Below are positions 1 to 62,979 of a DNA stretch of 64,000 bases, piece after piece (position 1 is the stretch's first letter; every line of letters starts with the position of its first letter). Under the pieces are notes generated by a model. The model saw nothing but the letters and a program-made list of their open reading frames with translations. It did no database searches and was not told the origin of the DNA. Both the position numbers and the translations under genes were made by a program. The stretch lies in the IMG/VR virus record IMGVR_UViG_3300027971_000001. The stretch is one strand, 5' to 3'. The stretch is from a virus. Its lineage: Duplodnaviria > Caudoviricetes.

Positions 1-22
1 ATTAGTTGTAAATATATATGTT

Positions 23-508
23 ATGGATCAAAAAGTCGAAGTCAAGAATTTATTAGACCAGTTGAAGGATGTACAGGCATTGTCTGAATCGCCCAGACAA
101 CCCGAAATTAAACTGGAAAAAGACCAAGTTGAGGATTTTGTAATCCAGCAATCGTCTCGTTTGATAAAGGAAACAAATGAACTCATACTTTCAATGAAGG
201 ATTATATAGCCCACAGTCCTGAAAGCAAGGAAATACTAGCAATTTCTGAACTAATTAAAGCAAGTACAGCAGCAATAGACACTTTAAATAAAATTAATTT
301 GAGTGAAAAGAAAAATCAAAATGCCAAAGAAATCAAAAAAATGGATATTGAATCTAAAAAGGAACTTAAAAATACTGAAAATGAAAGTCGCATGACTTTT
401 ACACGGGAAGAAATTCTGAAACAATTGATGCAATCTTCTGTTTCAATTGAGAGTGTTACTGTTGATGCTAAGAAATCGGAACCGTATCCAAAGCTCGCCG
501 GTTCGTAA
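23..508 (+). CDS. Hypothetical late protein, possibly terminase small subunit (gp16-like)
   Basis: 161 aa, helical. The segment EILAISELIKASTAAIDTLNK and the C-terminal TREEILKQL loosely resemble T4-type small terminases. TAAATA at 9-14 precedes the ATG. Confidence 0.35.
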   Translation: MDQKVEVKNLLDQLKDVQALSESPRQPEIKLEKDQVEDFVIQQSSRLIKETNELILSMKDYIAHSPESKEILAISELIKASTAAIDTLNKINLSEKKNQNAKEIKKMDIESKKELKNTENESRMTFTREEILKQLMQSSVSIESVTVDAKKSEPYPKLAGS

Positions 509-1322
509 ATGATGTCAAAATATCTGCGGCACGGCTTTTGAGTTGTGTTTGATACTGAACTTGTCCTTCCACTAATGTTGTTACGATTGTTGGTGGTACG
601 ACTTGAACATTTGTGGATTGGCTGTTTGGATTGTAATTTGAATAAAATTCATTTACTCTGAAGAAATCTGAAAATTCTTGTCGCAATTTTTGCGTAACAT
701 CATTTATACTTTTCATCATTCTTTGATAATGGTTATAATCAGGAATCATATTTTGTCCGTGTGATAAAGTATTTTCAGAAACTTTTTCTTGAAGATTAAA
801 TGATGAGTAACGGAAAAGACTATTAGAAGATTTTGAAAAGCTGGAGTTAACAATTTTGGCATTGTTACTGAGAGTATTTTCCATACCAGCACCATATAAT
901 GCAGGAACAGGAAGATTTTCCATATCTCGATCAGAAACCAATTGAGTCGATGAATTCGTATAATTGCTCATTCGTGCCAATGATCCAACACAATCTGATG
1001 GATTTCTATTAATTGTGGCATTTGGTCCCATTTCTAATCTTACTTGGTCTTGTACTTCAGAATATGTTGTTTTGTATTGCTTCAACCAATGAACAACAAA
1101 ATCTGTTTTAAGACTTTTTAAATCAAGATTTTTAAAAAAGTCTGTTTTTGCTTTTATCGGATCGTTTGCATAATCTGTTTTCAACCACTCTAGATGAACA
1201 TCCAATTCTTTAGGAAGATTACCAATATAATCCAAATAATTTGATGCAGACTTGTAAAAATCTTTTTTAAAAAAAAGATTAACTGATACCATTTCTGGAT
1301 CTATTGTTTTAATATTATTCAT
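468..1322 (-). CDS. Hypothetical protein at the end of the baseplate operon
   Basis: 284-aa ORF overlapping the stop of the hub gene by 4 nt; no recognisable motif. Confidence 0.6.
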   Translation of the reverse strand: MNNIKTIDPEMVSVNLFFKKDFYKSASNYLDYIGNLPKELDVHLEWLKTDYANDPIKAKTDFFKNLDLKSLKTDFVVHWLKQYKTTYSEVQDQVRLEMGPNATINRNPSDCVGSLARMSNYTNSSTQLVSDRDMENLPVPALYGAGMENTLSNNAKIVNSSFSKSSNSLFRYSSFNLQEKVSENTLSHGQNMIPDYNHYQRMMKSINDVTQKLRQEFSDFFRVNEFYSNYNPNSQSTNVQVVPPTIVTTLVEGQVQYQTQLKSRAADILTSFTNRRALDTVPIS

Positions 1323-2929
1323 GATACTTTACTGGTAAATTTCGGATCTTTATAATTATAAGTTTTCACTGCAAAAATTTCATTGTAATATTTTTGATCC
1401 ATGAACACATGTTCAACCCGAATGACCAAATATATACCCAAATTTTTATCATCGAAATAATTATCTGGTACACTGTTATGTCTTTGTATGCTTATGAATT
1501 GTCCCGCTTGACGACTTGTAACACCTTTAGTTCTGAATTTTATACAATTATTTAAAAATAATGAAGAACGCAATATGGCATTACGACCAAAAGAATATCT
1601 TTGAGTTTGACTTTCGCTGCTGATAGTGAAAATATTTTGTATATTTTGTTGTTTGAGACGATATTGATTATTTGCAAGATTTGATGCGGGTGGTTTTCCA
1701 CCAGATCCTTTTAAATTCTTAACATAATTGTTAATATAGGTTTGTTGTGCTGATTCAATATCATTGTTCGAAAAGTCTATACGGAATGTGTTTGTGCTGA
1801 AATTATGACTATGTACGGGATGTGAAACAATCTTTTCTTGAGTATCCTTTCCTGAAATGTTGGTAAATTCATATTGATTTAATATACTGGAATCATTAAA
1901 AGTCATCATGTTTCCGGCAAAATCTGGAACTCTGGATTGAACTGTGGAGGTTGTAGAATCGTCCATAGGCATGCCAAGGAAAAAACTTTCGAGCAGGGAG
2001 GGTCCAGCCGATTCACTTAAACCAAATTGAGATAAAGAAGGAGAATTTATGAATGCGGAACTGAACAAATCTTTAAAACTTTGCAATTTCCATTCTTCAG
2101 TATATCTTTCCAATCGCAAATAACAGTTGTCATAATCAGATTCAGACGAACTTACATGATAATCCAACAGATAATTCAAATCATCTATTGCTTTATATTG
2201 TGCAGGACTGCTATAAAATAATGTGCTTCCTCCAACATCCCATTTTCTAGAAATTTTAGGATTATATCCTTCTTCTGCATTAAAAACCTTTTTGATAAGA
2301 TTTTGAATCGCAGTTCCTGTCGGTATTCCCCTATCCTGATTTGACAATTTAATAACTTCTTTGTTATCAAGATAATCGGATGTTGAAAAATATGCCTGTT
2401 TTTCATTCATTATTTGATAAGTCACATCATGAAAATAAAGCTTTTTATATTTTTCATTTAAAGTATTTCCCCGAATATCTTCAGAATTATAAATTGAAAA
2501 GGTAAAACGCATATTAAAAACAATTTTATCTTTTTCATTCATTTCACCTTTTTTAATTGTTCCAGGTTTAATTTCTGGCATGATATCAACAATTAGAAAA
2601 TCCCTTGCATCACCTCTATAACGATATCCTTTGCCTACTGTTCCATTTAATGTTCCATCAACTAATGATGGAGTTTGAGAATAGCCTGGTTGCAGTGAAT
2701 TTAATGATTCAATAACATCGAATTTATTATCGTAAATTAAATAACCTTCCTGATAGAAATTGCTGATATCGTCTTCAATATACAAAGTTTTGATTGCAGA
2801 TTGTTTGATGCGCACCACATCATAATCAGGATTAAACAATAAAATGTTATAATAATATAAAATATCATTGATCTGAACAACCTGATCATTATAATTTTGA
2901 AGGTTGCTAATCGGGGCGGGCAAACTCAT
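1319..2929 (-). CDS. Baseplate hub protein (gp27/VgrG-like)
   Basis: 536 aa. N-terminal LYIEDDISNFYQEGYL and C-terminal GQFISIQR...GIYLVIRVEHVF pattern typical of hub proteins; baseplate gene context. Confidence 0.6.
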   Translation of the reverse strand: MSLPAPISNLQNYNDQVVQINDILYYYNILLFNPDYDVVRIKQSAIKTLYIEDDISNFYQEGYLIYDNKFDVIESLNSLQPGYSQTPSLVDGTLNGTVGKGYRYRGDARDFLIVDIMPEIKPGTIKKGEMNEKDKIVFNMRFTFSIYNSEDIRGNTLNEKYKKLYFHDVTYQIMNEKQAYFSTSDYLDNKEVIKLSNQDRGIPTGTAIQNLIKKVFNAEEGYNPKISRKWDVGGSTLFYSSPAQYKAIDDLNYLLDYHVSSSESDYDNCYLRLERYTEEWKLQSFKDLFSSAFINSPSLSQFGLSESAGPSLLESFFLGMPMDDSTTSTVQSRVPDFAGNMMTFNDSSILNQYEFTNISGKDTQEKIVSHPVHSHNFSTNTFRIDFSNNDIESAQQTYINNYVKNLKGSGGKPPASNLANNQYRLKQQNIQNIFTISSESQTQRYSFGRNAILRSSLFLNNCIKFRTKGVTSRQAGQFISIQRHNSVPDNYFDDKNLGIYLVIRVEHVFMDQKYYNEIFAVKTYNYKDPKFTSKVS

Positions 2930-3297
2930 AAGTTAATATTTTTTTGTATTATATTTAAGACTGTTGCCAAATAATTTTTTCTAATAACTTTAAGTTCAGC
3001 TCCAGGTTCAACAAATTTTATAGGATTGTTTATTTTATTTACAAGACATATGAACCACCACAAGTCTATTGTTCCATATTGTTCATAACTTATGGTTGTC
3101 CACGGTATTTTTCGGTTTAATTTTATTATATAATAAAATTGTTGATCAATATTGTCTGGAACAATAATATTATTCAAAATATTATAAAAATAAATAGAAT
3201 TCGGATCTTTATACAATTTAAAAATATTTTCATACCGTGTTGAATCCAAAGGAAACAAATCCGGGATATCATTTTGTTGTTTTCCAAAATCTATCAT
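2926..3297 (-). CDS. Baseplate wedge protein gp53-like (LysM-like)
   Basis: WTTISYEQYGTIDLWWFICLVNKINNP...GAELKV matches the gp53/LysM pattern. Confidence 0.75.
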   Translation of the reverse strand: MIDFGKQQNDIPDLFPLDSTRYENIFKLYKDPNSIYFYNILNNIIVPDNIDQQFYYIIKLNRKIPWTTISYEQYGTIDLWWFICLVNKINNPIKFVEPGAELKVIRKNYLATVLNIIQKNINL

Positions 3298-3299
3298 AA

Positions 3300-4532
3300 T
3301 TATATTCCTCCTGTGGTAGTTACACTTACAGGATCTGCATTTAATGATGTGTAAAGGAAATTACGAGTTTCAGAAACCAATCCTTTAAGTGTGATTTGTA
3401 TGCTATAACCATCTGGAATAATTGTATTAACACTGTTTTGACCTTGACCCAGACTGCTTTCATCCTTGAATGTTATATTCATTGGACGGCGAGATCCCTG
3501 GAATTGAACTTCCAATCTGCTCACATAAGCATATGGCATATATTTTATACCTGGAAGTGAAACTTCATAAATTACAGGCGGTTCAATCAAATCTCGTGTA
3601 AAACGAATAGGACGGTTTTGATAAACCATAAGATATATGAATTGCCAATTTCTTACTACATCCTCATAAGTGGCATGACCAGTATTCAAAAGAGGAAATT
3701 GGATGGTAACCTCATCTCCGCTATCTTGGAATTGATAAAATTTAGGTTTTTCAATATATGTTCCTGGTTCCATTATATTGATTGCTCCGGCCATACTTTC
3801 AGCCAATGCCCGACTTCCTGCTACAAGTTCTGATGCTCCTCCTGCAAATATACCCTCTCCTATACCTCCTACATTTGCATCACCAAAGTCATTTGAAACA
3901 CCATTTTGATAATCTTCAAAATAAGGAAGAACGTATTCCCATCCTGTAGGTTCTGTAATATATAAACCTTCATAAACACGCAACACATTTCGAGAACCTT
4001 GATTTTGAGGAAGACTAAAAAGACCATCACCTCCTAAGAAATTATTGAATTTTTCTTTAGCTCCACCTATTAATGAACCGAGTTTGTCTATCGTACTTCC
4101 GGTAGGTCCAGATTGAAGAAAATTCTGAACTTTTTGAAGCTGTTCGCTCAATTGACCTTGTGTAACAGTATCCAAAGATCGTCCTGCCCTTTGCAACAAT
4201 CCAGTTTTATCAAACAAACCTACAGTCATTGAGTTATAAGCCGCTTGAGCAATAAGTGCATTCGTTTTTAGACGTTTTTCACTTAAAGCAATATAAGGAA
4301 CTTCTTCTCGCTTGGTTAAAGGGGTATGAGTCCAATATAAACCATTTATAACATCAACAAGAAATTTATCACCTATTCGAAGACGTTGTGAGGATCCTTG
4401 TGCAATCGAAGATCCTACAGAATAACCAGCTCCTACCAAAACAGGAGGAGCTGAATCGCCAGTAACATCCCTTCCTTCAAAATTGATGGGATTGTCTGCA
4501 AATTTCCAAATATCTCCTACAAAATCTGACAT
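3300..4532 (-). CDS. Baseplate tail-tube cap/initiator (gp48-like)
   Basis: Tube-fold C-terminal half (IQFPLLN...EPPVIYEVSLPG...AYVSRLEVQF); lies between tape measure and gp53-like genes. Confidence 0.55.
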   Translation of the reverse strand: MSDFVGDIWKFADNPINFEGRDVTGDSAPPVLVGAGYSVGSSIAQGSSQRLRIGDKFLVDVINGLYWTHTPLTKREEVPYIALSEKRLKTNALIAQAAYNSMTVGLFDKTGLLQRAGRSLDTVTQGQLSEQLQKVQNFLQSGPTGSTIDKLGSLIGGAKEKFNNFLGGDGLFSLPQNQGSRNVLRVYEGLYITEPTGWEYVLPYFEDYQNGVSNDFGDANVGGIGEGIFAGGASELVAGSRALAESMAGAINIMEPGTYIEKPKFYQFQDSGDEVTIQFPLLNTGHATYEDVVRNWQFIYLMVYQNRPIRFTRDLIEPPVIYEVSLPGIKYMPYAYVSRLEVQFQGSRRPMNITFKDESSLGQGQNSVNTIIPDGYSIQITLKGLVSETRNFLYTSLNADPVSVTTTGGI

Positions 4533-4534: not shown

Positions 4535-6421
4535 TTAATTACCTCTGTATCCTTTTCTCAAATCAAAAACTGAAGTTGATTGGGGAAAACTGTTTTGTGT
4601 GCTTTGGTTGATAACATTATTGACAACATTCTTTCCGTTTGCCAATTGTTCCATCAACATATCAAATTTTTGATTTAATGTTTTGAATTCACGCAATTGA
4701 TCTACTGCTATCTTGTTGTTAACAGTATTTGTTTTATTGAGATTGCCCATTTGATCACCAAACATTGAAAAAGCTTCAGACGGATTGTTTTCAATTTTAG
4801 ATACTAAATTTTCAAAATTAAACCCATTTGTTTTATTTAAATTATTCATTTCATCGGTGAACACTGAAAAAGGTTTTGATAAATCATTTAAATTTCTATT
4901 AGCCATATTTGTTTCTGAAGAAACATCAAATATAGGCGTTGTAGCAACTGCAGGTGTAGGCATTTCTGTTATTTGTGATTCTGATGCTATGGCTTTTAAT
5001 TCCTCACCTACTTTTTTCATGAAAGGAATCTGGGATATTTTGTCAGCCAAAGACTTTATACCATCCCAAATCATGACAAAAAAGTTCTTTATATAACCAA
5101 AGAATTTTGATGCCAATGATGCTATTTCTTTCATTAACGGTGCAATATATTCAAAGGTTTTTTTAAGAATATTAAACGCACCGACAACAGGACCGCCTAA
5201 AAGATTTAATATTGGAGTTATGTATGGACCAAATTTTTCCCCTATAGCTTTAAAAAGATTTATAATAGGATCAAAAATATTTCCTATTCTTTTTGCGATA
5301 GCTGTGTAAAATTTTCCTAAATCAAATCTATCAAAGAAATCACTAATTTTCTTTCCCAGATCTTTATCAAACCAACCTATAATCCAACCAACTATTTTTC
5401 CGGGTATGGAAATGATTACAGATGAAAGTTGATTTCCTATTTGTGACAATCCTTGTAACCATTTTCCTTCCCGAAACGGCTTAAATATCTCTTCTATCCG
5501 ATCCCTGATAGTTTCAAACTTAAAAAGATCCAAACCAAAAATTTCAAAGAAATCAAAAAAGTTTAACAATCCTTTTGTAAGACCTGTAACTACTTTTTGA
5601 AGAAATGATTTGTCTTTAAGCTTAGGATCATTAAATGCTTCAACCAATCCAACAATAACTTCAAAAAGAGCCAAAACAGGTCCTAAAATTTTACCAACCA
5701 ACCTTCCTATTTTGGATCCAACTTGAAAAACTTTAAATGCTATTCTTATATAATCTTCAAACAATCTAAAAAAGGTCGGAAATGCTTTCATCATAAGCAA
5801 AGGACCTTTTCCACCTTCAACTATTTTGAAAACTCTTCCTATAGTTTCAAACAATTTAGCTATAGGTTTAATAACCTTTTCTTTTAAAGCATCTTCAATA
5901 AATTTTACAAATTTTGTTTCACGTATAGGTTTTAACAATTCAAGAATTTTAAGTTTTATAGCAGAAAAAATTTCTTTTATGAATTTTCCTAATTTGGTTT
6001 CACTTAAAAATAATTTTAATCCTTTTAACATCTTTACTATTTCTGCAATAGCTCCGGATACAATACCAGCTAAAAGTGCAAGTGCACCTAAAAGTGCTTT
6101 TATCCACTTATTAGATTTTTCTTCAATTTTTGCCAATGTAGGTGAAAGAACAAGATCTTTAATTTCTTTTTGTTTAAATTCAGGTCTTCCCACTTTTTCT
6201 TCACCTTTGGGAAATACAATATCTTTGATTGATTTGGCAAGAATTTTCGACATTGTTTCCCACCGACGTTTTTCAGTAGTTGAAAGAGTAGAAGACAATT
6301 TATCGTCCTCATTTACTATAGTATCCCCCTTTTCATCCCCCTTCTTTCTGTCAAAAGAAGCCAATTTATCTACTGTTTGGGATAAGGTTTTTAAGAGATT
6401 GATTGTCTCTTCATTAGTCAT
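4535..6421 (-). CDS. Tape measure protein (gp29-like)
   Basis: 628 aa with long amphipathic helical F/I/K/G-rich repeats; baseplate context; TAAATA 6 nt upstream. Confidence 0.65.
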   Translation of the reverse strand: MTNEETINLLKTLSQTVDKLASFDRKKGDEKGDTIVNEDDKLSSTLSTTEKRRWETMSKILAKSIKDIVFPKGEEKVGRPEFKQKEIKDLVLSPTLAKIEEKSNKWIKALLGALALLAGIVSGAIAEIVKMLKGLKLFLSETKLGKFIKEIFSAIKLKILELLKPIRETKFVKFIEDALKEKVIKPIAKLFETIGRVFKIVEGGKGPLLMMKAFPTFFRLFEDYIRIAFKVFQVGSKIGRLVGKILGPVLALFEVIVGLVEAFNDPKLKDKSFLQKVVTGLTKGLLNFFDFFEIFGLDLFKFETIRDRIEEIFKPFREGKWLQGLSQIGNQLSSVIISIPGKIVGWIIGWFDKDLGKKISDFFDRFDLGKFYTAIAKRIGNIFDPIINLFKAIGEKFGPYITPILNLLGGPVVGAFNILKKTFEYIAPLMKEIASLASKFFGYIKNFFVMIWDGIKSLADKISQIPFMKKVGEELKAIASESQITEMPTPAVATTPIFDVSSETNMANRNLNDLSKPFSVFTDEMNNLNKTNGFNFENLVSKIENNPSEAFSMFGDQMGNLNKTNTVNNKIAVDQLREFKTLNQKFDMLMEQLANGKNVVNNVINQSTQNSFPQSTSVFDLRKGYRGN

Positions 6422-6448
6422 CCAAAATATTTATTAAAAAATATCTTT

Positions 6449-8102: not shown

Positions 8103-9026
8103 TTAAAAGAAACCTTGGAAATTCGTAGGCAGATTGGCAGATGTAAAGCTATTTCCATTTTGGAAAGGTGAAACATTCGGAATTGTTCCAGTACTGATTC
8201 GATTAATGATGTTTGGAAGCGGAATATACAGATTGGAATGCACAGTATAATTGGTATAAGTCCAATATGTGGCATATTTCTCATATTCAGTATCAGGAGA
8301 ATAGGTTAAACTTTGGTCAACAAGTCCGGTTGGAACACAATTATAGAATGTCCAAACTTTACGAGGTATTTGACTGACTTTTTGATAAGAACGTGTGTAT
8401 TGAAGAATTGTTACAGTACATTTTATGTTGCGTATATCGTTATCACCACCAGGACGTGCCACAAAACCATAATGACTGGCCAATATTACCCATGGACGAA
8501 TGACCATGTCCATAAAAGATGTGTTTGTTTCTCGAAATTCAATAACAAGAGGCAACCCAGAATACCCTGTTCGGTCACCAGCAATAAGACCTGGAACAAA
8601 TCCTCGATTATTTTTGATTGCTAGATTCTGAACATCATATTTTTCATTAGGAATATTAACTCCTTGAGCAAAAAGACAGCCCACCACCTTTTGGTAAAAG
8701 TAACTTGTTAATATTCCTTTTGGTTGAGAAACGTCCCAACCTTTTTTGTCTCCGCCTACATATTCAAGATTTTGAATAATGTCGGATGAAATAGCCCTTG
8801 GATATGTATCTATCAAAACAACCCATTGACTGTTTAAAGGAATTGAACTGAACCAACTCTCCATTTGTGTCAGGAAATATTCCTGTGCACTGATAAGGGG
8901 AACACCTGGTATATTGAAACCGAAAAGACTGCTTACTTGTGGAGCAAAAAGAGGATTTGTGCCAGTGGCCAAACCACGAATATTACTTCCTAAACTGCGT
9001 ATAGCATCTGTTACTGGATTATTGAT
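8103..9026 (-). CDS. Tail-tube-fold minor protein (gp54/gp19-like); start uncertain (ATC at 9026 or TTG at 8972)
   Basis: IEFRETNTSFMDMVIRPW...KVWTFYNCVP is a tube fold. The frame stays open to 9047, and GGAGG lies 8 nt before the ATC at 9026. Confidence 0.65.
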   Translation of the reverse strand: MNNPVTDAIRSLGSNIRGLATGTNPLFAPQVSSLFGFNIPGVPLISAQEYFLTQMESWFSSIPLNSQWVVLIDTYPRAISSDIIQNLEYVGGDKKGWDVSQPKGILTSYFYQKVVGCLFAQGVNIPNEKYDVQNLAIKNNRGFVPGLIAGDRTGYSGLPLVIEFRETNTSFMDMVIRPWVILASHYGFVARPGGDNDIRNIKCTVTILQYTRSYQKVSQIPRKVWTFYNCVPTGLVDQSLTYSPDTEYEKYATYWTYTNYTVHSNLYIPLPNIINRISTGTIPNVSPFQNGNSFTSANLPTNFQGFF

Positions 9027-9035
9027 ATGATTATC

Positions 9036-9056
9036 CTCCTCTAATATTTAGAGGAG
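9036..9056 (-). promoter_or_regulatory. Hairpin containing a late promoter core and sequestering a Shine-Dalgarno
   Basis: Minus strand CTCCTCTAA-ATA-TTAGAGGAG is a perfect 9-bp stem. TAAATA spans the loop and AGAGGAG is in the 3' arm. Confidence 0.6.
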
Positions 9057-9060
9057 TATA

Positions 9061-9612
9061 TTAACTTTGATAGGTTCTGCGGAAATATTGATAAGCAACA
9101 GTGACTGTGAATGTTACGAATTCACCACCATTGGTAATATCATATTCCAGAGGTCCAACATTACGAGGAGAAACACCGACCAACTGATATTGCGAAACGC
9201 GATTCAATTGGTTGTCTAATTGAACCAAATCAATGACGGCTGTTTGCTTGGCGGCAAAATAGTTACCAGTGCTTGTGACATCATCAAAAACATCTCGTGT
9301 CCAATCTTCAAACTTTTGACGAAGATTGCTCTTTTGATCGCAATAAAATTCCATTGCATAAGCTTCGGAGCCAGGATATTTTGCACTACCAGGAATATGG
9401 AAATCCAATCCCATGTAAGGAACTGTTACTTCAGTGATTTCACGGGCAGGAAGTGAAGCGGTACGAACATAAACCAAATCATCTTCGTTCCAAACTTGGC
9501 TGCTTGAGTCACCCGCATTAATATTAATAACACGGAAATTAAATTTACGTGAAAAATCACGTTCAGTTACTATACGGTAAAAATTCTGAATTGTTTGTTG
9601 TGTGGCTGCCAT
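9061..9612 (-). CDS. gp19: Tail tube protein
   Basis: RKFNFRV...YVRTASLPAREI..VTVPYMG...PG...MEFYCD...LRQKFEDW, a classic gp19 pattern; downstream of the sheath gene. Confidence 0.9.
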   Translation of the reverse strand: MAATQQTIQNFYRIVTERDFSRKFNFRVININAGDSSSQVWNEDDLVYVRTASLPAREITEVTVPYMGLDFHIPGSAKYPGSEAYAMEFYCDQKSNLRQKFEDWTRDVFDDVTSTGNYFAAKQTAVIDLVQLDNQLNRVSQYQLVGVSPRNVGPLEYDITNGGEFVTFTVTVAYQYFRRTYQS

Positions 9613-9622
9613 ATATTATTAT

Positions 9623-10021
9623 TTATTCTAAAGTTAACAAATACTTTAATTTATTTAGTTCTGCAACGATTTCTTCTACAATATTTTGTGCATCGGTGTC
9701 ATTTGCATTTAAGATTGGACATTCTTTATTTGTTAAAATTCCTATATATTGATTTATTTTTGCCAAAATATTGTCATTAGAATATGGCTCTATAGTCAAA
9801 TTTATGGGTTTATACTCGTAACTACGATAACGACCTAGTAAAGCTTCCACCAATTTATCAAAAGCTTTTGCTAAATCTTTTCCTATTTTATCAAACGCTT
9901 CGTGTTGGGCAAAGCTAAAAGTTTGCCAATGAAACAACTTTAACTGGGCACTGCATTCCAAAGCAAGAGTTATAATATATGAAGGATCGTAACTTTGTTG
10001 GATTTTAATTACTTTTATCAC
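9623..10021 (-). CDS. Ferritin/Dps-like four-helix protein (DUF5856-like)
   Basis: QLKLFHWQT...QHEAFD...DKLVE...KLKYLLTL. GTG at 10021 lies 5 nt after TATAAATA; the track start at 10054 falls inside the terminator. Confidence 0.7.
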   Translation of the reverse strand: MIKVIKIQQSYDPSYIITLALECSAQLKLFHWQTFSFAQHEAFDKIGKDLAKAFDKLVEALLGRYRSYEYKPINLTIEPYSNDNILAKINQYIGILTNKECPILNANDTDAQNIVEEIVAELNKLKYLLTLE

Positions 10022-10037
10022 GTTTATATTTATAACA

Positions 10038-10068
10038 AAACACCCCTCTTTCAATAAGAGGGGTGTTT
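10038..10068 (-). terminator. Intrinsic terminator after the sheath gene
   Basis: AAACACCCCTCTT / AAGAGGGGTGTTT 13-bp inverted repeat, T-rich on the minus strand. Confidence 0.8.
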
Positions 10069-10088
10069 CATAATTTTATATATTATTA

Positions 10089-12452
10089 TTAGGATACCAA
10101 TTCTTGGAAGTCCTGACCAGTTCGTGTGGCATAGAAGTTAACCAAGATGAATTCTGCGGCACGTACAGGTTTGATGTAGATGTCCACAACCAGTTCATTT
10201 TGGTCGATCACATCAGGTGTATTGTTTCTTTCGTCGCATATGATCAGATAGTCATATACACCTTGTGTGTTCTTGGCCAATTCGAATATCGGTGTAAGAA
10301 CGTTTATTACTTGCGTTCTTGTGAACAGTGTATTCGGTTCGAACAAGAAGAACTTGATGGTATTCCTTGTCGCGACTTCCAGATACAAGAACAACCGGCG
10401 TACATTGATACGATCAAATGCGCTTGGTTTCTTTAACAAGGTCTTTTGACCGAAGATTACAAATCCTTCAGCAGGGAAGAATGCAACCGGATTCAAATTA
10501 ACCTTATACAATTGATCACGATGTTTTTGTGTGGGATAGATCGGAAGATCATTCACACCAAGCAATACGCCCCGAGTAAATCCGGCAGGAGCGAACCAAG
10601 GTTGGAAGTTATCGTCAGTATTTGCCATTGCAGCACCTGCAAATCCTGAGAAAGGAACCCATGTTTGCTTGCCTAGACCATCATCAAATACCCTAGGGAA
10701 TGTGGCATATGTACATGCATAGCTTGTGTTCAGCAAGCTGTACAAGTGACGTAATGGCCAGTAAATGTGTTGATTAAAGTTCTTTGATGGATCATCAATA
10801 ACTTTGCTATTTTCACCTTGAACAAAGATGTTACGGAGAGGATCTGCAATGAATAGATGATCTTTGCGAACATTCTGGGCAAAGTTTGTGAATACGCTTG
10901 CCACAGTATTGTAATTTTCGCGAATATCAAGAGCATTTCCATTAAGACCTTCGTTATTAGTAATGAAGAATCCAGTCATATCAAGAGGAATAGTGTCATC
11001 GAACACGTCTGCACCGCTAAGAACATTCAGATTGTAACGGGCAGCTGAGAATATTGTTCCAAGACCACCTTCCAATGACAATGAAAGATTGTAAAGATCA
11101 GGATTTTCAAGCAATGTGAACACACGTTCCAGCTTTGTTGGAACGTTTCCGATTAATTTGGCAGTTGCAACTGTTGTATCGAAAGCACCGAAGCTATAAA
11201 GAGCGTCAATGCGACGAAGAGGACTTGCTACATTGTTGGCCAACCAACCCACAACTGCACTAGGAGCACCCACACGTGTTTCATATGTTGCATTTGTGTC
11301 AACAAATCCATCACTATTCAAAGGATTAGCCAGATTCGGATTCAACATACGAACCTTCTTGTTGGGATTTCCTGCACTATTCAACCATGTTTGTGTATTA
11401 CGATTGCTGATAAAAGGATTGATCAACAATGAAAGATTGGGACTATCATCTTCAACCGATCCTATAAAGAATGTTTGGGCTGGACCGCCGTTTTCGCTAT
11501 TGATTTGACGGAAATAATCAAATGAACCCACATAACTTTCAGACAATAGATAATCTAAACTGATAACATCAGGGGCAAACACGCTTTGGCGGAGTTTGAA
11601 CACACCAAGGATGATTGTATCATCAAACTGGCGTGTGCTGATATCAAAAGTAGGAATATTTTCCATTACTTCACTAACACTGTTTCCAAGACCAAACTGT
11701 GTTGCGCTTAATGGGAAGTTCAAACGAGTACGAGGAACATTCAGGAAGTTGTATGTGGATCCAGCTTTGGAATCAACACTGCGAACTTGACTGATACCAT
11801 CGAATTGTGTGGCAGGATTCAAATTAGTGTTATCAATCGCTCCTACATAATATCCTTCATATTTTTGATTGATGCTGGTTTGAGCTTTGTTAAGAACAAT
11901 CATTCCGGCATTGGCCAATTGTGTAAGTTTGCTGGCGCCTGTGCTGGTGAAGCTGAATTGTGTTGGTACATTTTTCCAACTTGAGAATGCATCACCATTA
12001 AGAATGCTTTGATATTCAGTTGCATTCAATTCAATCTGTGTGGGTTGACCGAAGAAATATGTGTTTGCACCAGAAAGACCAGTACCACCTGTGGCAGCAG
12101 TTCCTTCATATGCTCCATTATAACTGGTTACAGGATAAACAAGAGCAGAGTAAGAATCTGTGAAACCTGCACCGCTTCCGCTACCATATGGCATACGGCT
12201 GACAAGCACTTCTGCTTGGCTTTGGAACATTGCTTTAACAGTGTGATAAAAATAACGTTCAGCCGCATTGGTGGGCTTGCCATAAATTTGTTCAAATTCG
12301 CTAAGACTTGAAGGTTGGATAATTTCATCCAAAGGACCTTGAGGTGCATAACCAGGTATTAAAACCGTTGTGGGAACATTAATTACTGGACGTAATGAAA
12401 GATCTATTTCGTTAATTTCAACACCAGGACTCTGAATTGTACGCTTAGGCAT
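10089..12452 (-). CDS. gp18: Tail sheath protein
   Basis: SPGVEINEIDLS at the N-terminus; PWFAPAGFTRG, GQKTL...SAFDRINVRRLF and FEPN...TR at the C-terminus. Confidence 0.95.
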   Translation of the reverse strand: MPKRTIQSPGVEINEIDLSLRPVINVPTTVLIPGYAPQGPLDEIIQPSSLSEFEQIYGKPTNAAERYFYHTVKAMFQSQAEVLVSRMPYGSGSGAGFTDSYSALVYPVTSYNGAYEGTAATGGTGLSGANTYFFGQPTQIELNATEYQSILNGDAFSSWKNVPTQFSFTSTGASKLTQLANAGMIVLNKAQTSINQKYEGYYVGAIDNTNLNPATQFDGISQVRSVDSKAGSTYNFLNVPRTRLNFPLSATQFGLGNSVSEVMENIPTFDISTRQFDDTIILGVFKLRQSVFAPDVISLDYLLSESYVGSFDYFRQINSENGGPAQTFFIGSVEDDSPNLSLLINPFISNRNTQTWLNSAGNPNKKVRMLNPNLANPLNSDGFVDTNATYETRVGAPSAVVGWLANNVASPLRRIDALYSFGAFDTTVATAKLIGNVPTKLERVFTLLENPDLYNLSLSLEGGLGTIFSAARYNLNVLSGADVFDDTIPLDMTGFFITNNEGLNGNALDIRENYNTVASVFTNFAQNVRKDHLFIADPLRNIFVQGENSKVIDDPSKNFNQHIYWPLRHLYSLLNTSYACTYATFPRVFDDGLGKQTWVPFSGFAGAAMANTDDNFQPWFAPAGFTRGVLLGVNDLPIYPTQKHRDQLYKVNLNPVAFFPAEGFVIFGQKTLLKKPSAFDRINVRRLFLYLEVATRNTIKFFLFEPNTLFTRTQVINVLTPIFELAKNTQGVYDYLIICDERNNTPDVIDQNELVVDIYIKPVRAAEFILVNFYATRTGQDFQELVS

Positions 12453-12458
12453 ATAAAT

Positions 12459-12466
12459 TATTTATA
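12459..12466 (-). promoter_or_regulatory. T4-type late promoter TATAAATA (sheath)
   Basis: Exact TATAAATA ending 6 nt before the ATG. Confidence 0.75.
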
Positions 12467-12493: not shown

Positions 12494-13063
12494 TTAGATC
12501 AAAGTAGCCTGAAACTGAAAGAAACTAAAGGTAAACGTACTTTCGGCTTCACTGCTATCCCTATAATTGTAATTAATACCACCCAGTTCAACAGGTACTG
12601 CCCCTGAGTATTCAAACTTTATTTTGTTATTATTATATTCATCCAAACCATAAACTGTTATGGTTGTACTATAATCGTTTAATTTAGGATCATCATTAGG
12701 GTTTCTAGCATTAGGAATACTAGCTTTATTGTCGTTAAGTGCTTTAAGCCAACTATATACAAACCAATAATTATTGTATAAATTATCCACTGTAAAATTA
12801 ACTGCAACATTTCCATAGCTTGGACGGGCATAACTGGTCACTTTCATGACTTGACCGGCATATTTGGTTTCCACTTCAGGAACACTCATTGTAGGAACCA
12901 CAATTCCATAAACAGAAAATTGAAAACTTTCCAAATTAACTTCACCATTATTTCGGGTATATTGATTCAAATAAGGACGCAAAATATTAGGAGGATTTAC
13001 CACCATTATAAATTTGTCGCGACGTGTCTTGTTGAGCATCGCCTGATTGTATAAACCTGCCAT
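12494..13063 (-). CDS. Tail completion/tube terminator protein (gp3-like)
   Basis: FSVYGIVVP...VNFTVDNLYNNYWFVYSWL tube-like fold. The start is refined to ATG 13063, 5 nt after TAAATA (13069-13074). Confidence 0.6.
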   Translation of the reverse strand: MAGLYNQAMLNKTRRDKFIMVVNPPNILRPYLNQYTRNNGEVNLESFQFSVYGIVVPTMSVPEVETKYAGQVMKVTSYARPSYGNVAVNFTVDNLYNNYWFVYSWLKALNDNKASIPNARNPNDDPKLNDYSTTITVYGLDEYNNNKIKFEYSGAVPVELGGINYNYRDSSEAESTFTFSFFQFQATLI

Positions 13064-13071
13064 ATTAGTAT

Positions 13072-14736
13072 TTAAAGAAGTTTCCAACCTTCTTTTCCGT
13101 AATAATCCATTTCTATATCTCTTTCATCCTGTTCCTGAGAACCAAACATAATAGGCATGTTTGGAAGCATGTCTTCATTACCCCCGAATTTATATGTCAT
13201 ATTTTCATTTTTTTTGAAAGGAATGATGCTACTGGGGCGATTGTTTGAATCACGAGAAACAACTTCATAATATTTTTCAACTAGTTCATCATTTAAAATC
13301 AAAAGCGCCATGGCCATGCTCATGACACAGTCATCAAAATTGTTTGCTCCTTTTCGTGCAGCCCATGTACCATTCGGATATCTAGTAAAAATTTTTAATT
13401 CATTTAATGTAACAATATCTCGAAACACAATTGATCTAAGTTCATTGATCCAGTATCGCATGTTGATAACTGCATGATATTTTGTGTTGGTGTTTGTGAA
13501 TACTCCTGGTTTTTCAAAATTTTTCCCATGACTATAACTGATCATAGGATCATAATTATAATTTTCAAAAAGAGAATCTGCTATCTGTGCCCCGCAATTA
13601 TTGCGCTCTATAAGTAATGGGGGATTACCCCATTGGTTCAATATCTCTAAAAGCTTTATTGTAAAATTATATGGAGTAATAGTATTATCACGAAAAACTG
13701 CAACCTGACGAATAGAAGATAGATCCGCCAAATCAAATATCTGAACTACACTACTGGCCTGACCAACACCTTCTGCCACATCCACACCTGCCACATATAC
13801 TCCATTTTTATGAGGTTGTTCCCAAATCTTATATTTTCCATCATCAAATTTGAAAAGAGGTTCACTGCATCCGCTTTTATATTTTTCAAAATCTTCTCCG
13901 TTTAACGCAGATTCCCCCTCTTGAAGAAACTCATTTCCGAATTCCTGATCAAAAAGTTCTCGACTACCTAAACTTCGTATTGTGCTATCTTTCCATTTTT
14001 CATCTCGACCAGGAACTTCCCACCAATCCACCCGTTCTGTTTTCCAATTGTTTACTCCTTGTTCACCATCAGTGTATAATTGATAAAACAGATTGCCTGT
14101 TCCATTCGGAGTGCTGGCCACAAAAATTTTACTTCGTTTGGATGATGAAATAATCGGATAAACTGCAGACCAAAATGTTTCCACCATGTTGTTGTCAATA
14201 TGAGCCAACTCGTCAATGACCAACACATTCACAGAACTTCCTCGACCTGCATCAGATGATGTGGTGCTGATGCTGATCCGACTTCCATTGGCAAGACCCA
14301 TTGCAGTTTTTCCATACTCAGTCACACCTGGTTTTAAAAAGTTTGGAAGATTTTCATAAGCAAGACGAACACGAGCAAAAATTTCTTTTGCTGTTTCCTC
14401 TTTGTTTGCCACAAGAAGAACACGTTGATCATTTTGAAAACATGCAAGCCAAAGACAATAAATGGTCATGACTGTTGTTTTTCCTGCCTGACGACTTGAT
14501 AACAAACAAACAAAACGATTGTCTCGAAGACTTCTTAAAATTCTTTTTTGATAAGGATGCAGTTTAATCTTTATTCTTCCTACATCCAAATTAATAATAT
14601 AAAAATAATTTTCAGCAAAATGCAAAATATTATTTTTGCACTTATCCATCTCTTTTATCATCTCTGGAGTATATTCAAACTCAGCCTGAGAAGTGGGTAA
14701 ATTTGGATTGCCCAAATACCTATCATTTGATTTCAT
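13072..14736 (-). CDS. gp17: Terminase large subunit
   Basis: YLGNPNL start; Walker A SRQAGKTT; Walker B VLVIDELAH; STPNG; nuclease motifs GVDVAEG and DDCVM. Confidence 0.95.
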   Translation of the reverse strand: MKSNDRYLGNPNLPTSQAEFEYTPEMIKEMDKCKNNILHFAENYFYIINLDVGRIKIKLHPYQKRILRSLRDNRFVCLLSSRQAGKTTVMTIYCLWLACFQNDQRVLLVANKEETAKEIFARVRLAYENLPNFLKPGVTEYGKTAMGLANGSRISISTTSSDAGRGSSVNVLVIDELAHIDNNMVETFWSAVYPIISSSKRSKIFVASTPNGTGNLFYQLYTDGEQGVNNWKTERVDWWEVPGRDEKWKDSTIRSLGSRELFDQEFGNEFLQEGESALNGEDFEKYKSGCSEPLFKFDDGKYKIWEQPHKNGVYVAGVDVAEGVGQASSVVQIFDLADLSSIRQVAVFRDNTITPYNFTIKLLEILNQWGNPPLLIERNNCGAQIADSLFENYNYDPMISYSHGKNFEKPGVFTNTNTKYHAVINMRYWINELRSIVFRDIVTLNELKIFTRYPNGTWAARKGANNFDDCVMSMAMALLILNDELVEKYYEVVSRDSNNRPSSIIPFKKNENMTYKFGGNEDMLPNMPIMFGSQEQDERDIEMDYYGKEGWKLL

Positions 14737-14740: not shown

Positions 14741-14748
14741 TATAAATA
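14741..14748 (+). promoter_or_regulatory. T4-type late promoter TATAAATA
   Basis: Exact motif 8 nt before ATG 14757, in the 20-bp gap divergent from gp17. Confidence 0.7.
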
Positions 14749-14756
14749 CTTAACGT

Positions 14757-15359
14757 ATGAATCAAAAGAGTAAATATATTAAGAAATACGGTATGCCTAG
14801 AAGTAACGCAAACACATTGGTTGATATAGGAGCAGTTTATCATAAAATGCTTCTGGAAAATGCTGCCCAACAAGAACAAGCAGTTATTGAAGAAAAAAAG
14901 ACCAAAAAGCTTGCGGATCCCAAAGCCAAATTTGGTACAAAACCAGGAAAAGGTGGAATACCTTTGGAGCTTGTAAAAGATAAAAAACCTGATTTGGATC
15001 CTGAATTAAAAGATTTTGCACATAAAGATAGCGGTCCTGATTTGAAACAATTGGCAGAACCTATTGATCCAAAAGAAAAGAAATTTAGAAAAAATAACTA
15101 TTTCAACCCGGAAGAACTCAGTTCTGCCAATGAAAGTGTTATTAATAATAAGAATGTATCACTTATTGCAGATGAGCTTACAAAAGAAGACAAAAATGAA
15201 GCTTATGAACGCCTTTGTGAATATAAAACACTATGGGGCAAAGATAACTTTATTAATCTTCTTACAGTAGCTGCTGTAAATGGCCACACAGAAGCACTTG
15301 AAGAATTTTTCAGTTTTGTAAATAAAAATACAAAAAATAGAAAGGATAACAATAAATAA
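14757..15359 (+). CDS. Hypothetical late protein (possible head-internal protein)
   Basis: 200 aa, charged, preceded by a late promoter. Confidence 0.6.
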   Translation: MNQKSKYIKKYGMPRSNANTLVDIGAVYHKMLLENAAQQEQAVIEEKKTKKLADPKAKFGTKPGKGGIPLELVKDKKPDLDPELKDFAHKDSGPDLKQLAEPIDPKEKKFRKNNYFNPEELSSANESVINNKNVSLIADELTKEDKNEAYERLCEYKTLWGKDNFINLLTVAAVNGHTEALEEFFSFVNKNTKNRKDNNK

Positions 15360-15364
15360 TCTAT

Positions 15365-15967
15365 ATGAGTAACTTCGATAAACTATATGAAGCCGTGATG
15401 TCCGAGGACGACGTTGAACTTGGTATCACTGGTGCTCAACCCGGCGTAGCTGAAGTCGCCCCAGCCGCCACTGGTGAAGAAATAGAGTTGACTCCTAAAG
15501 AGCACCTCGCAAAAGCAATCGAGCTTCTGCAAAAGCTACAAAGCTTGGATCTCATTTCTGATGAATCCGAAGCCGAAGCTGAAGTTGAAGGCGAAACAGA
15601 AGCCGGTTCTGATGAAGACGGTGAATATATGTCTTCTGAAGATAATGAAGAGATTGCCACAGAAGAAATCGAAGCTGAAGATATTGGCCATGCACTTGTT
15701 AACGCTAAAAAAGGTCAAGAACTCACAAAAGTTTCGTCTGGCAGCAACAAAGTTGCTAGCACAGCAACCTCCCTAGCCAAAACTGGTAAGGGTGGTGATG
15801 CCAAGGTAACTGACAAGGTAGGCACTGAAGGCGAAAAGGGCCATGCACTTGTTGGTAGTGGTGTCAAAGGTGGAGCACCCACAAGCACAAAAGGAAAAGC
15901 CAACGTCGTTTCCGGAGTGATTAAGGGTGGTGGAAAAGGTGATCAAGACTTTTTCCAATCCAACTGA
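15365..15967 (+). CDS. Hypothetical acidic, Gly/Lys-rich late protein (possible core/internal protein)
   Basis: Glu-rich middle; GHALV motif occurs twice; TAAATA 6 nt upstream; terminator follows. Confidence 0.65.
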   Translation: MSNFDKLYEAVMSEDDVELGITGAQPGVAEVAPAATGEEIELTPKEHLAKAIELLQKLQSLDLISDESEAEAEVEGETEAGSDEDGEYMSSEDNEEIATEEIEAEDIGHALVNAKKGQELTKVSSGSNKVASTATSLAKTGKGGDAKVTDKVGTEGEKGHALVGSGVKGGAPTSTKGKANVVSGVIKGGGKGDQDFFQSN

Positions 15968-15984: not shown

Positions 15985-16018
15985 AAAACCCCCGTTTAAT
16001 AGACGGGGGTTTTTTTTT
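15985..16018 (+). terminator. Intrinsic terminator
   Basis: AAAACCCCCGT / ACGGGGGTTTT stem followed by a T run. Confidence 0.85.
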
Positions 16019-16032
16019 GACTAAATAAGTAT

Positions 16033-19281: not shown

Positions 19282-19282
19282 T

Positions 19283-19642: not shown

Positions 19643-19676
19643 ATATAAATTATTTACCATTATAATAAATAATAAT

Positions 19677-21074: not shown

Positions 21075-21132
21075 TCGTTGTATTTTAACATTATTATTGA
21101 AATATCAAATCTTATGTTTAAATAAACGCATT

Positions 21133-44148: not shown

Positions 44149-44242
44149 ATTGTTTGAATACTTTATTGTAATATTGGGTGTTATTGCAAATATTGTGCTG
44201 ATTGTTAATGCTCTGCATCATTGGTAAATTGTAAATAATTGG

Positions 44243-55744: not shown

Positions 55745-55825
55745 GCATATAATAAAAAGTTTTCATCAACTTTTTTTCTTTACATTTTTTTAAAAATATG
55801 TTATTTGGCAAATAAATAATCTTAT

Positions 55826-55930
55826 ATGCTAATGAGTATTATTGGATATGCATTGGCCGGTTACTTGGCCAGTGCTTTTGTTAGTGTGGCAATTGGTGTG
55901 ATCATGAATCGTAGTGAACATGAAAAATGA
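55826..55930 (+). CDS. 34-aa membrane peptide (not in ORF track)
   Basis: MLMSIIGYALAGYLASAFVSVAIGVIM...; TAAATA 7 nt upstream. Confidence 0.5.
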   Translation: MLMSIIGYALAGYLASAFVSVAIGVIMNRSEHEK

Positions 55931-58193: not shown

Positions 58194-58666
58194 TATTTTA
58201 CGTAACTGGAGGTGGCGCTCACGCAGCCATCTGCAATCGCGTTAAGAACTTTGAGGGCCAGTGCTGGATCATTTCCAATTTGCCCGTAAAGATTGCGATA
58301 CACGTCGCTAAGACTGGCAGCGAAGTTTGTCCAATGTGTTTTCTCCGGGAGAAAATTAGCCACAGCTTCATCCAGGTCGTCTGCAGATGGTACAGATCCA
58401 CTGCTCAAACTACGAACCACATTAGCAACATCATGAATCATCTTGGCTTTGGTAATGCGATCTTCGGGGCTGACAGCTCCTTCAAGTACTGCTGTGCAGG
58501 CGAGGTTAACTGCAGGTTTCACATATGGAAGTGCCTGCTCGATCTTTTGTTGGACTGTGGTTCCGCCAGTTGATCCGGATCCACCTCCGCCGTTATTGGT
58601 GGCACAGCTGGATAGAAGCATTGCGAAGGGTAAAGGAAGTAACCATTTGAGTAGTTCATTAATCAT
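58193..58666 (-). CDS. Lipoprotein
   Basis: Signal peptide with lipobox LSSC, Gly/Ser linker; TAAATA 5 nt upstream. Confidence 0.75.
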   Translation of the reverse strand: MINELLKWLLPLPFAMLLSSCATNNGGGGSGSTGGTTVQQKIEQALPYVKPAVNLACTAVLEGAVSPEDRITKAKMIHDVANVVRSLSSGSVPSADDLDEAVANFLPEKTHWTNFAASLSDVYRNLYGQIGNDPALALKVLNAIADGCVSATSSYVK

Positions 58667-58927
58667 GAAAGTATTTACCGCCTGTCAGTCCAAAACAACA
58701 ATTCTTGCCAAAATAAAATATATAATCTTTTTTATTTGAATAAATCTTTAAGGGCTTCCATCCAATTGAACCCCACATCCCCTGCATTTTCCATCAACAA
58801 CAATTCCTCTTCACTTGGTGTGTGGTCTTCTCTCATCACCTTGTGTTTGGAATTTCTTTTGTCCACAACCATATGTATCTCACGGGTTATGGAAAAATCA
58901 ATTATTTTAATTATTTTTTATATTTTT

Positions 58928-62098: not shown

Positions 62099-62192
62099 AG
62101 GTTGGAGAGTGACAGATTTTGAAAATAATACAAGAAAATAATCTTATATTTTATGGGGGTGGGTGAGTTATTAAAACGGCTAATAACCAAGA

Positions 62193-62486
62193 TTAGCTCA
62201 CCTTATGCATGAAGATGGGCGTGTAATCACCCACATATGCACCTTCGGTGTTGTAGCTGAAAAATTCTTCAGCGTCATCGGGACTCATATCCTTCTCCAA
62301 AATCTTGATGCATTTGGCTCGGTCATATATCGCCACATTCTTTCCACCAAATGCACTTCCAATTCCAATGAATGCACCATCAAAATTATCTGCCAACAAT
62401 ATCTTGTTCGCTTCATCGGGATAATACTCCTCGATGAATTCGCTGATCATTTTACGATTAGGGTTTTTATTCTTTATTCTTTTCAT
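62193..62486 (-). CDS. Conserved phage hypothetical protein
   Basis: DGAFIG...AIYD..KCI...DAEEFF.YNT.GAYVG..TPIF. Confidence 0.7.
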   Translation of the reverse strand: MKRIKNKNPNRKMISEFIEEYYPDEANKILLADNFDGAFIGIGSAFGGKNVAIYDRAKCIKILEKDMSPDDAEEFFSYNTEGAYVGDYTPIFMHKVS

Positions 62487-62800
62487 TGTGCTTTCTCCTT
62501 TTTGCCAGTTATCAAGTATTGTTTGATATATTGGCCGTTTAGATTTTCTATATTCACTTCACTATACTTCCTGCGATATATGGTATCTGCAAGAAGAAGA
62601 GGATCTTTACAATAATAAGCATCCCCATTTCTGTTGAACACACGCCAAAGACCTTGGCCAATATTGACCAGATTCTTCAGCTTGCTTCTCAGCTTGTTTG
62701 TCATTCTCACTTGGTTACCCTCCTTTGTTTTAGGGTCATCAGAGGTAACCATATTCTTTTCTTTCTTGCAAGTCTTTTTTTGCAAAATCTTCTTCTTCAT
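62483..62800 (-). CDS. Basic hypothetical protein
   Basis: 105 aa, Lys-rich; TAAATA 9 nt upstream. Confidence 0.5.
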   Translation of the reverse strand: MKKKILQKKTCKKEKNMVTSDDPKTKEGNQVRMTNKLRSKLKNLVNIGQGLWRVFNRNGDAYYCKDPLLLADTIYRRKYSEVNIENLNGQYIKQYLITGKKEKAQ

Positions 62801-62979
62801 TACTTGATGTATTTATTTCAAAATAACAAAAAAGATTTTATATATTTTAAAAAAGAGATGTTGCCGGGGGATGGCAAGCTCCCGGAGAAGCTCCCGGCAC
62901 CACCCTGATCCGGTGGTGTTCAGTCGAGACCAGCTCTTCAGAAAAATTTCGAGGGAACAATAACACTGCAGTTGGTTGG

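Follow-up and report, generated by a model that had tools for sequence, protein, structure and literature searches.

The DNA considered here is a stretch of 64,000 nucleotides (nt) from the virus record IMGVR_UViG_3300027971_000001 of IMG/VR (the window), and our subject is the hexamer TAAATA (the box), which stands a few nucleotides before the start codons of many of its genes (Table 1). The window has 36% G+C and the gene content of a contractile-tailed phage. Judged by its sequence, this phage is a distant, uncultured relative of T4: T4-type sheath, tube and baseplate genes and gp61-like genes are present in the window, which also encodes tail-fibre assembly genes and two HNH endonucleases. 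Its large terminase TerL is 31-39% identical to those of T4-like phages (Cr30, phiM9, cyanophages and the T-evens), no isolate being closer, and a nucleotide search of isolated phages with positions 26100-34000 gave zero matches. Metagenome contigs of 199-205 kb carry the same phage, which puts its genome at about 205 kb, and further relatives have TerL identities of 83-99%.

TAAATA ends 5-9 nt upstream of 27 start codons in the window, 25 of them ATG, the start codon that leaderless mRNAs favour, and two GTG (10021 and 44243). Specifically, the gap is 5 nt at eleven starts, 6 nt at seven, 7 nt at two, 8 nt at four and 9 nt at three. A sequence-only reading of the window had listed 26 such starts; all of them are correct, and the start of nrdB (41453, gap 6) is an additional one. 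Among 63 unique sites of the lineage, 54% have a gap of 5 nt and 27% one of 6 nt (81% for the two combined), and the maximum is 9 nt. The spacer between box and start is 84% A+T, and 67% of these sites have a T directly ahead of the start codon. TAAATA is invariant over 64 sites and the two positions preceding it are A or T in about 75-80%, giving the consensus wwTAAATA. The full TATAAATA is found at several sites, for example at 12452, 14757, 33558, 37217, 37284 and 41453.

Base composition was controlled for by shuffling the 25 upstream nt of each gene individually in 5000 rounds. In this A/T-matched null the box at gap 5-9 precedes 1.3 ± 1.1 starts (maximum 7), as compared to 25 of the 83 called starts in the real sequence. 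This is a position-specific enrichment of about 19-fold over the A/T-matched background, the comparison that the sequence-only reading had proposed, and elsewhere TAAATA is depleted. There are 58 copies on both strands as compared to 89 ± 8.5 in dinucleotide shuffles, and 26 copies followed by ATG at gap 5-9 as compared to 10.2 ± 3.5 (maximum 19). TAAATA is the rarest among the 15 A4T2 hexamers of the window; the start-linked share (ATG at 5-9 nt) is 45% for TAAATA and at most 20% for the other A4T2 hexamers, and TAAATA ranks first among hexamers at the gap 5-9 upstream position. Mis-called starts were rejected as an explanation, since the called start is the first possible start codon of its frame in 22 of 26 motif genes and a downstream in-frame start behind a Shine-Dalgarno-like core exists in only three of the 26. 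A stop-codon artefact was rejected as well, because the stop codon of the upstream gene overlaps only about six of the 27 motifs; an in-frame stop falls within the motif region at five of the 27 sites.

Genes with the box lack a ribosome-binding site of the usual kind. A Shine-Dalgarno (SD) core within 18 nt was found in none of 26 motif genes and in 24 of 58 other genes (Fisher 3.7e-5), and the mean anti-SD pairing energy is +0.07 kcal/mol in the former and -3.7 kcal/mol in the latter. The earlier description of A/T-rich spacers free of GGAG is accurate. Canonical SDs (AAGGAG, GGAGG) precede the small genes of the 44-64 kb part and operon-internal late genes, such as 2926-3297, 3300-4532 and 17079-17849; the last of these overlaps gene 16033-17079 and carries GGAG. 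It is important to note that the sequence-only reading had considered, as an alternative to a promoter, a translation enhancer in an SD-independent host. The phage itself uses AAGGAG before early and operon-internal late genes, and with canonical SDs in the same phage the premise of an SD-independent host falls.

The box precedes 24 of the 50 genes in the late region. Of the remainder, 18 are coupled to the upstream gene (at most 10 nt from it, or overlapping it; seven of the 18 have an SD), one has an SD only and seven have neither. Three of these seven have one-letter variants of the box at the same distance, TAATTA-N5 (7225), TAAAATA-N6 (21074) and TAAAATA-N5 (35961). The box is confined to one temporal class of genes. 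The gene of TerL lacks both a canonical box and an SD. The 20 nt upstream of it are filled by the TATAAATAC of the neighbouring gene in reverse complement, which reads TATTTATA at a distance of 4 nt from the TerL ATG; this arrangement is kept in relatives.

Upstream of the orthologues in the relatives with TerL identities of 83-99%, hexamer and gap stay the same, while spacer letters and flanks drift. For example, the spacers before the gene starting at 16033 read AGTAT, CATAT, ACTAT, GATAT and AATAT across relatives. By walking outward through contigs of related assemblies we covered a further 100 kb or so of the lineage beyond the window, with 31 additional TAAATA-N5-9-ATG starts. The genes concerned include those for the portal, an LCIB-type carbonic anhydrase, a fibre protein and PhoH.

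The T4 late promoter is an 8-bp TATAAATA box without a -35 element, and the variant with A(-13) in place of T sets this box at -13 to -6 (PMC2988020). The late box of cyanophages is NATAAATA (PMC2984593). In our set of 64 sites no conserved -35 element is found upstream of the box, every position from -40 to -1 holding at most 0.35 bit, and TTGACA with at most one mismatch occurs at a -35-like spacing in three of the 64. This lack of -35 conservation fits a sigma factor that has region 2 only. A homologue of gp55 was not found among the open reading frames (ORFs) of the window in a PHROGs search, nor with a purpose-built hidden Markov model (HMM) in the window and TerL-flank loci, nor in the IMG/VR relatives G001-G006, the relatives covering about 100 kb around the window. 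The gene that the sequence-only reading had suggested looking for elsewhere is nevertheless present in a genome of the same lineage, at L299:875-1396 (minus), which equals L301:10001-10522. Its product of 173 amino acids (aa) matches phrog_234 with an E value of 6e-28 and our own HMM with 3e-31. The phrog_234 search recovers gp55 of T4, P-HM1, Cr30 and phiM9. The gene sits between those of UvsW and gp47, in the order UvsY-UvsW-gp55-gp47-gp46-...-gp43-...-UvsX-...-gp41. The two contigs that carry it, a 203-kb ENA contig and a 98-kb JGI contig, are both linked to the twin contig of the window through chains of identical proteins. Scans of IMG/VR with gp55 alignments and an alignment of the major capsid protein (MCP) returned other T4-like lineages only, and these were used as controls. 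The residues of T4 gp55 that form base pockets or bind RNA polymerase are known (PMC7892883). Of these, L54, E70, D74, F86, Y97 and T99 (T4 numbering) are kept in the homologue of the lineage, and H95 is replaced by F, as in other non-T-even homologues.

A box at -13 to -6 leaves five nt between box and +1, so that at gap 5 the +1 would fall on the A of the ATG. In T4, 85% of 13 sites have a purine as the sixth nt downstream of the box. At the gap-5 sites of the present lineage the sixth nt is the A of the ATG and the nt before it is T in 79%, which fits the Y-1 R+1 preference. With T4 geometry as the guide, the sites with gaps of 6-9 nt would have leaders of 1-4 nt, or of 0 nt if the polymerase stretches to the purine. 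The proposal of the sequence-only reading that the box is the T4 late -10 element, with transcription starting just downstream, is in line with this numbering, which puts +1 at 0-4 nt from the start codon. Its view that most virion genes have a promoter of their own agrees with the promoter layout described below; the predicted leaders are 0-4 nt rather than 0-3 nt, and the motif genes nrdB and ATPase in the window, as well as PhoH elsewhere in the lineage, are not virion genes.

Four further features, independent of the T4 analogy, fit a start just after the box. First, a terminator at 10022-10070 (minus, dG -22.1) has a T-tract that ends 1 nt before a box (10034), and a bidirectional terminator at 15985-16035 (dG -18.3) ends 3 nt before another (16018). 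Both are strong intrinsic terminators, both leave just 12-14 nt ahead of the start codon and both are kept in relatives. Second, divergent gene pairs that are 20, 34 and 66 nt apart have an own box for each gene. Third, two boxes lie within hairpins that hold an SD in the 3' arm (19279..19318 and 9020..9066). The layout is the same as that of T4 genes e, soc and 49, in which the late transcript begins inside the hairpin and frees the SD. Such a device works only with a transcription start a few nt after the box. Note that the tail gene ending at 8103, downstream of the hairpin at 9020-9066, has no in-frame ATG near it; TTG 8972 or a near-cognate codon are candidates for its start. Fourth, in a relative with 58% TerL identity (L021, IMGVR_UViG_3300035698_004529) five genes have TAAATA-N16-18-ATG with AAGGAG between, among them the orthologue of the sheath gene, 41% identical and with the same N-terminus. 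Box and ribosome-binding site are thus separable, the box being the upstream one. The late leader of L021 is very regular, TAAATA, about 6 nt, AAGGAG, about 6-7 nt and ATG (e.g. 4128-4153, 8572-8596, 8955-8981), and seems to stand midway between leaders of T4 length and no leader at all.

Late transcription in T4, a textbook system, yields mRNAs that are SD-led and largely polycistronic. We counted TAAATA followed by an ORF with ATG at gaps of 5-9 nt and of 15-39 nt in different T4-like phages. The respective counts are 24 and 6 in the window and 145 and 68 in TerL-flank relatives. In T4 (73-122 kb) they are 2 and 19, or 0 and 11 when the full TATAAATA box is required, and in P-HM1 they are 1 and 7. 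Three environmental T4-like sets of about 2.4 Mb in total gave 9 and 138 (80 cyanophage-like loci), 36 and 135 (80 diverse gp55 loci) and 21 and 295 (80 MCP loci). Leader collapse is a trait of this lineage and not of T4-like phages generally. The difference from T4 that the sequence-only reading had pointed out is borne out, and it extends to the other T4-likes, in which box and start are 15-40 nt apart with an SD between. In T4 itself, 20-29 nt separate box and start and include an SD, whereas here the distance is 5-9 nt and there is no SD. T4-like cyanophages and environmental T4-likes (NATAAATA or CTAAATA) have the same box and the same gp55 family, but the distance is 15-40 nt. The likeness to T4 includes the A/T core of the box, the missing -35 element and a gp55 homologue in the lineage, and also promoters that follow terminators directly, that occur on either strand and that lie within hairpins masking an SD (e/soc/49). 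As compared to T4, the octamer is less strict at its first two positions (wwTAAATA), first cistrons have roughly one promoter each, and gp55 of the lineage is extended by a basic N-terminus and lacks a C-terminal tail like that of T4.

On the basis of the sequence comparisons it is probable that TAAATA is a gp55-type late promoter core that abuts the start codons and gives leaderless or near-leaderless mRNAs. TAAATA (wwTAAATA) would be the -10-like core of a T4-type late promoter, which is probably read by the host RNA polymerase with the phage gp55-family sigma factor and which would have been shifted right up to the coding sequence in this lineage. If T4 geometry applies, transcription would begin on the A of the ATG or 1-4 nt upstream of it. 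The leader would be too short for an SD, and translation would proceed via recognition of the 5'-terminal start codon (70S / IF2 pathway). Only the 5'-proximal cistron could be read in this way, and the followers would depend on an SD and/or stop-start overlap. If only the first cistron benefits, nearly every first cistron should have its own box and the followers an SD or coupling, as is seen.

Several observations weigh against this explanation. Gaps of 8-9 nt (seven of 27 in the window) would give leaders of 3-4 nt, and at two of the sites the start codon is GTG, from which leaderless mRNAs are initiated poorly in E. coli. Where motif genes stand in tandem with no terminator between them, read-through transcripts will carry them too, and on these RNAs either another mode of initiation is needed or translation is lost. 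The gp55 homologue was seen on contigs of the lineage and not on the window's own record. Moreover, N13, R57 and E77 of T4 gp55 are replaced in it, it ends in an acidic tail instead of the hydrophobic C-terminal clamp-binding tail of T4, and its N-terminus is extended by about 30 aa, rich in Lys and Arg, which T4, P-HM1, Cr30 and phiM9 lack. With these altered residues and termini, the start-site geometry could differ from that of T4. The families of the co-activator gp33 and the sliding clamp gp45 were unmatched among ten unannotated neighbours of gp55, gp43 and UvsX, and the genome also encodes an RpoD-like sigma factor of 261 aa with regions 2 and 4 (L288:7073-7858).

One may ask whether the box is a late promoter while the protein comes mostly from read-through RNA, the A/U-rich box and spacer serving as an SD-independent ribosome site (S1-type enhancer) or for termination-reinitiation after the nearby upstream stop; the element would then have a dual role, and the monocistronic leaderless RNA would be a minor template. 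Tandem genes such as those of 26563-30400 are only 8 nt apart with no terminator between, the stop codon of the upstream gene lies inside six motifs, the spacers are 84% A+T and leaderless initiation fits the gaps of 8-9 nt less well, all of which would suit this explanation. We nevertheless consider it unlikely: many sites are located in divergent spacers or behind strong terminators, where there is no upstream transcript or stop codon, operon-internal genes without the motif carry an SD, so that the phage does not dispense with SDs in general, and in L021 the box lies upstream of a normal SD and is not a ribosome site there.

It is less likely still that the box is a promoter at leaderless distance with a reader other than gp55. 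The RpoD-like sigma factor, whose gene lies about 200-1000 nt past the window end, would be such a reader, and the changed pocket residues and missing T4 C-terminal tail of the lineage gp55 are compatible with this. However, this sigma factor keeps region 4 and the TAAATA sites have no -35, and the box agrees with the consensus for gp55 in T4 and cyanophages. A family of sites with a perfect TTGACA before early genes suits an RpoD-like sigma better. This second, unrelated promoter-like family precedes early-region genes within 52280-59530 (minus), with sites at 52314, 53129, 53890, 54902, 55744, 57220 and 59530. The perfect TTGACA is directly followed by TTT(T/G)(G/T)N(A/T)AATAAT, and when one mismatch is allowed the pattern has 8 matches in the window and zero in the other loci fetched. 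The 261-aa sigma factor is a candidate for its reader. Three copies have TAG(A/G)A(C/A) 17 nt after TTGACA and 6 nt before the ATG, so that leaders might be very short in some early genes too.

That the motif is a translation signal only, or a by-product of TAA stops and A/T-rich spacers, with no promoter function, is very improbable: it does take the place of the SD and some copies do overlap stop codons, but the overlap is limited to the few motifs noted above, the A/T-matched null falls far below the observed count, the hexamer is invariant in relatives while neighbouring letters drift, the box is limited to one temporal gene class and identical to the late-promoter core of a family whose gp55 gene is present in the lineage, and two copies have the layout terminator-box-start.

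There are precedents for parts of the gp55-type leaderless arrangement that we favour. In Deinococcus-Thermus a -10 box a few bp before ORFs marks leaderless genes, and experiments have revealed that it is a promoter and not a ribosome-binding site (PMC12340547). The signature is the same, a -10 box near the start codon in place of a ribosome-binding site, but there it belongs to cellular genes with a TANNNT box and a housekeeping sigma, whereas here it is viral with a class-specific gp55-type box. Middle and late mRNAs of the Thermus phage phiYS40 (and P23-45) are mostly leaderless, and the host IF2/IF3 are reportedly shifted in their favour (PMC3594737). Like phiYS40, the present phage would be a lytic phage with most of its later mRNAs leaderless, in our case as predicted from sequence; phiYS40 is, however, not T4-like, its host phylum uses leaderless mRNAs widely, and the present phage has strong SDs as well. 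The promoters of phiYS40 are read by the host sigma. In poxviruses the TAAAT initiator of late promoters overlaps the ATG, with one promoter per gene; these viruses have their own RNA polymerase, and their mRNAs have a poly(A) 5' leader that results from slippage. The likeness is that a late-class core of a virus abuts or overlaps the start, and no homology with this eukaryotic virus is implied. In the literature searched we found no paper linking leaderless mRNAs to gp55-type late promoters.

A natural relative of T4 appears to have lost the leaders of some 60 or more late genes, 27 of them in the window and 31 in another 100 kb. If this is true, a gp55 promoter can be fused directly to the coding sequence, and a phage can rest its whole virion production on leaderless initiation where the host otherwise uses SDs. 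The comparative series (T4, 20-29 nt; the 58%-TerL relative, 16-18 nt and an SD; this lineage, 5-6 nt) is useful for studying leader loss and the requirements of leaderless translation. A further question is whether leaderless initiation serves phages to keep temporal classes apart in translation. For annotation, gene callers with a ribosome-binding-site model will mis-score starts in this lineage, and the box gives a nearly exact position of the start codon. A more speculative extension, which we hold to be possible but doubtful, is that the phage has two translation regimes, SD-led for early and operon-internal genes and leaderless for the late proteome, and that it tilts host initiation towards 5'-terminal AUGs, for example via the IF2/IF3 balance or ribosome modification. 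If so, late messages would outcompete host and early mRNAs, and the layout of one promoter per cistron would be the genomic footprint of the switch, which would have arisen in the T4 family after the split from relatives with minimal SD leaders.

Table 1. Genes, box-associated starts and hairpins of the window (gap, nt between box and start codon)
Feature	Gene	Site	Strand	Box, gap and start	Remarks
Gene	23-508	9..25	+	TAAATA 9-14, gap 8, ATG 23	
Operon-internal late genes	2926..4532		-		no motif; SD GGAGG before 3297, AGAGG before 4532
Tape-measure-like gene	4535-6421	6419..6433	-	TAAATA 6433-6428, gap 6, ATG 6421	
Hairpin before tail gene ending 8103		9020..9066	-	TAAATA 9050-9045 in loop region	dG -13.2; GGAGG in 3' arm
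Tail tube gene	9061-9612	9610..9625	-	TAAATA, gap 7, ATG 9612	TAA of motif is stop of upstream gene
Gene (DUF5856)	9623-10021	10019..10070	-	TAAATA 10032-10027, gap 5, GTG 10021	terminator, then box
Tail sheath gene	10089-12452	12450..12464	-	TATAAATA, gap 6, ATG 12452	
Tube-like gene	12494-13063	13061..13074	-	TAAATA, gap 5, ATG 13063	TAA of motif is stop of TerL
TerL	13072-14736		-		
Gene start at 14757		14743..14759	+	TATAAATA, gap 8, ATG 14757	within 20-nt divergent spacer common to TerL (minus)
Gene	15365-15967	15353..15367	+	TAAATA, gap 6, ATG 15365	
Gene	16033-17079	15985..16035	+	TAAATA 16022-16027, gap 5, ATG 16033	bidirectional terminator, GAC, then box
Head closure Hc2-like gene	17079-17849		+		
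Hairpin before ATG 19281	18865-19281	19279..19318	-	TAAATA in 5' arm and loop	dG -13.2, z -4.6; SD GAGGG in 3' arm, 5 nt before ATG
Back-to-back pair		19640..19679	both		34-nt divergent spacer
Minus partner of pair			-	TAAATA 19656-19651, gap 8, ATG 19642	
Plus partner of pair			+	TAAATA 19666-19671, gap 5, ATG 19677	
gp61-type primase	20106-21074				
Gene	21133-22647	21119..21135	+	TAAATA, gap 8, ATG 21133	
Tail-fibre assembly gene	26172-26546	26544..26558	-	TAAATA, gap 6, ATG 26546	
Gene	26563-27840	27838..27851	-	TAAATA, gap 5, ATG 27840	upstream stop inside motif
Gene	27849-29147	29145..29158	-	TAAATA, gap 5, ATG 29147	upstream stop inside motif
Gene	29156-30400	30398..30412	-	TAAATA, gap 6, ATG 30400	
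Fibre-like gene	30814-32184	32182..32198	-	TAAATA, gap 8, ATG 32184	
ATPase gene	32223-33356	33354..33367	-	TAAATA, gap 5, ATG 33356	
Gene	33558-35261	33543..33560	+	TATAAATA, gap 9, ATG 33558	
Gene	35274-35480	35259..35276	+	TAAATA, gap 9, ATG 35274	
Divergent pair		37215..37286		TATAAATA 37228-37223 (minus), gap 5, ATG 37217; TATAAATA 37273-37278 (plus), gap 5, ATG 37284	
NrdB and NrdA genes	40389-43750				
nrdB	40389-41453	41451..41465	-	TATAAATA, gap 6, ATG 41453	
Gene	44243-44989	44232..44245	+	TAAATA, gap 5, GTG 44243	
34-codon ORF	55826-55930	55813..55930	+	TAAATA, gap 7, ATG 55826	
Gene	58193-58666	58664..58677	-	TAAATA, gap 5, ATG 58666	
Gene	62483-62800	62798..62815	-	TAAATA, gap 9, ATG 62800	

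Regarding the neighbourhood of individual sites, the minus-strand segment 26172-32184 contains three tandem genes of 414-432 aa that are 8 nt apart, each with its own TAAATA. The trio is flanked by two tail-fibre-assembly genes and the fibre-like gene, and the segment looks like a host-recognition cassette. The product of the 34-codon ORF at 55826 is small, with one hydrophobic helix and a charged tail, and a stable hairpin of about -17 kcal/mol lies inside the ORF (55850-55882). Five tRNAs are encoded in the window, a cluster of four (Thr, Tyr, Met and Ile-UAU) at 59797-60164 and a separate tRNA-Gln at 50339-50409. A phage-encoded initiator tRNA aiding leaderless initiation was considered and rejected, since the tRNA-Met (59997-60069) looks elongator-type; as read from its sequence, the 1:72 end is paired and the three G-C pairs beside the anticodon loop are missing. 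Finally, a 24-nt stretch ending in AAACAAAAAGGAGACAT precedes both 47710-47895 and 47922-48245 (at 47686-47709 and 47898-47921, plus strand), and this duplicated stretch is a copied ribosome-binding cassette.

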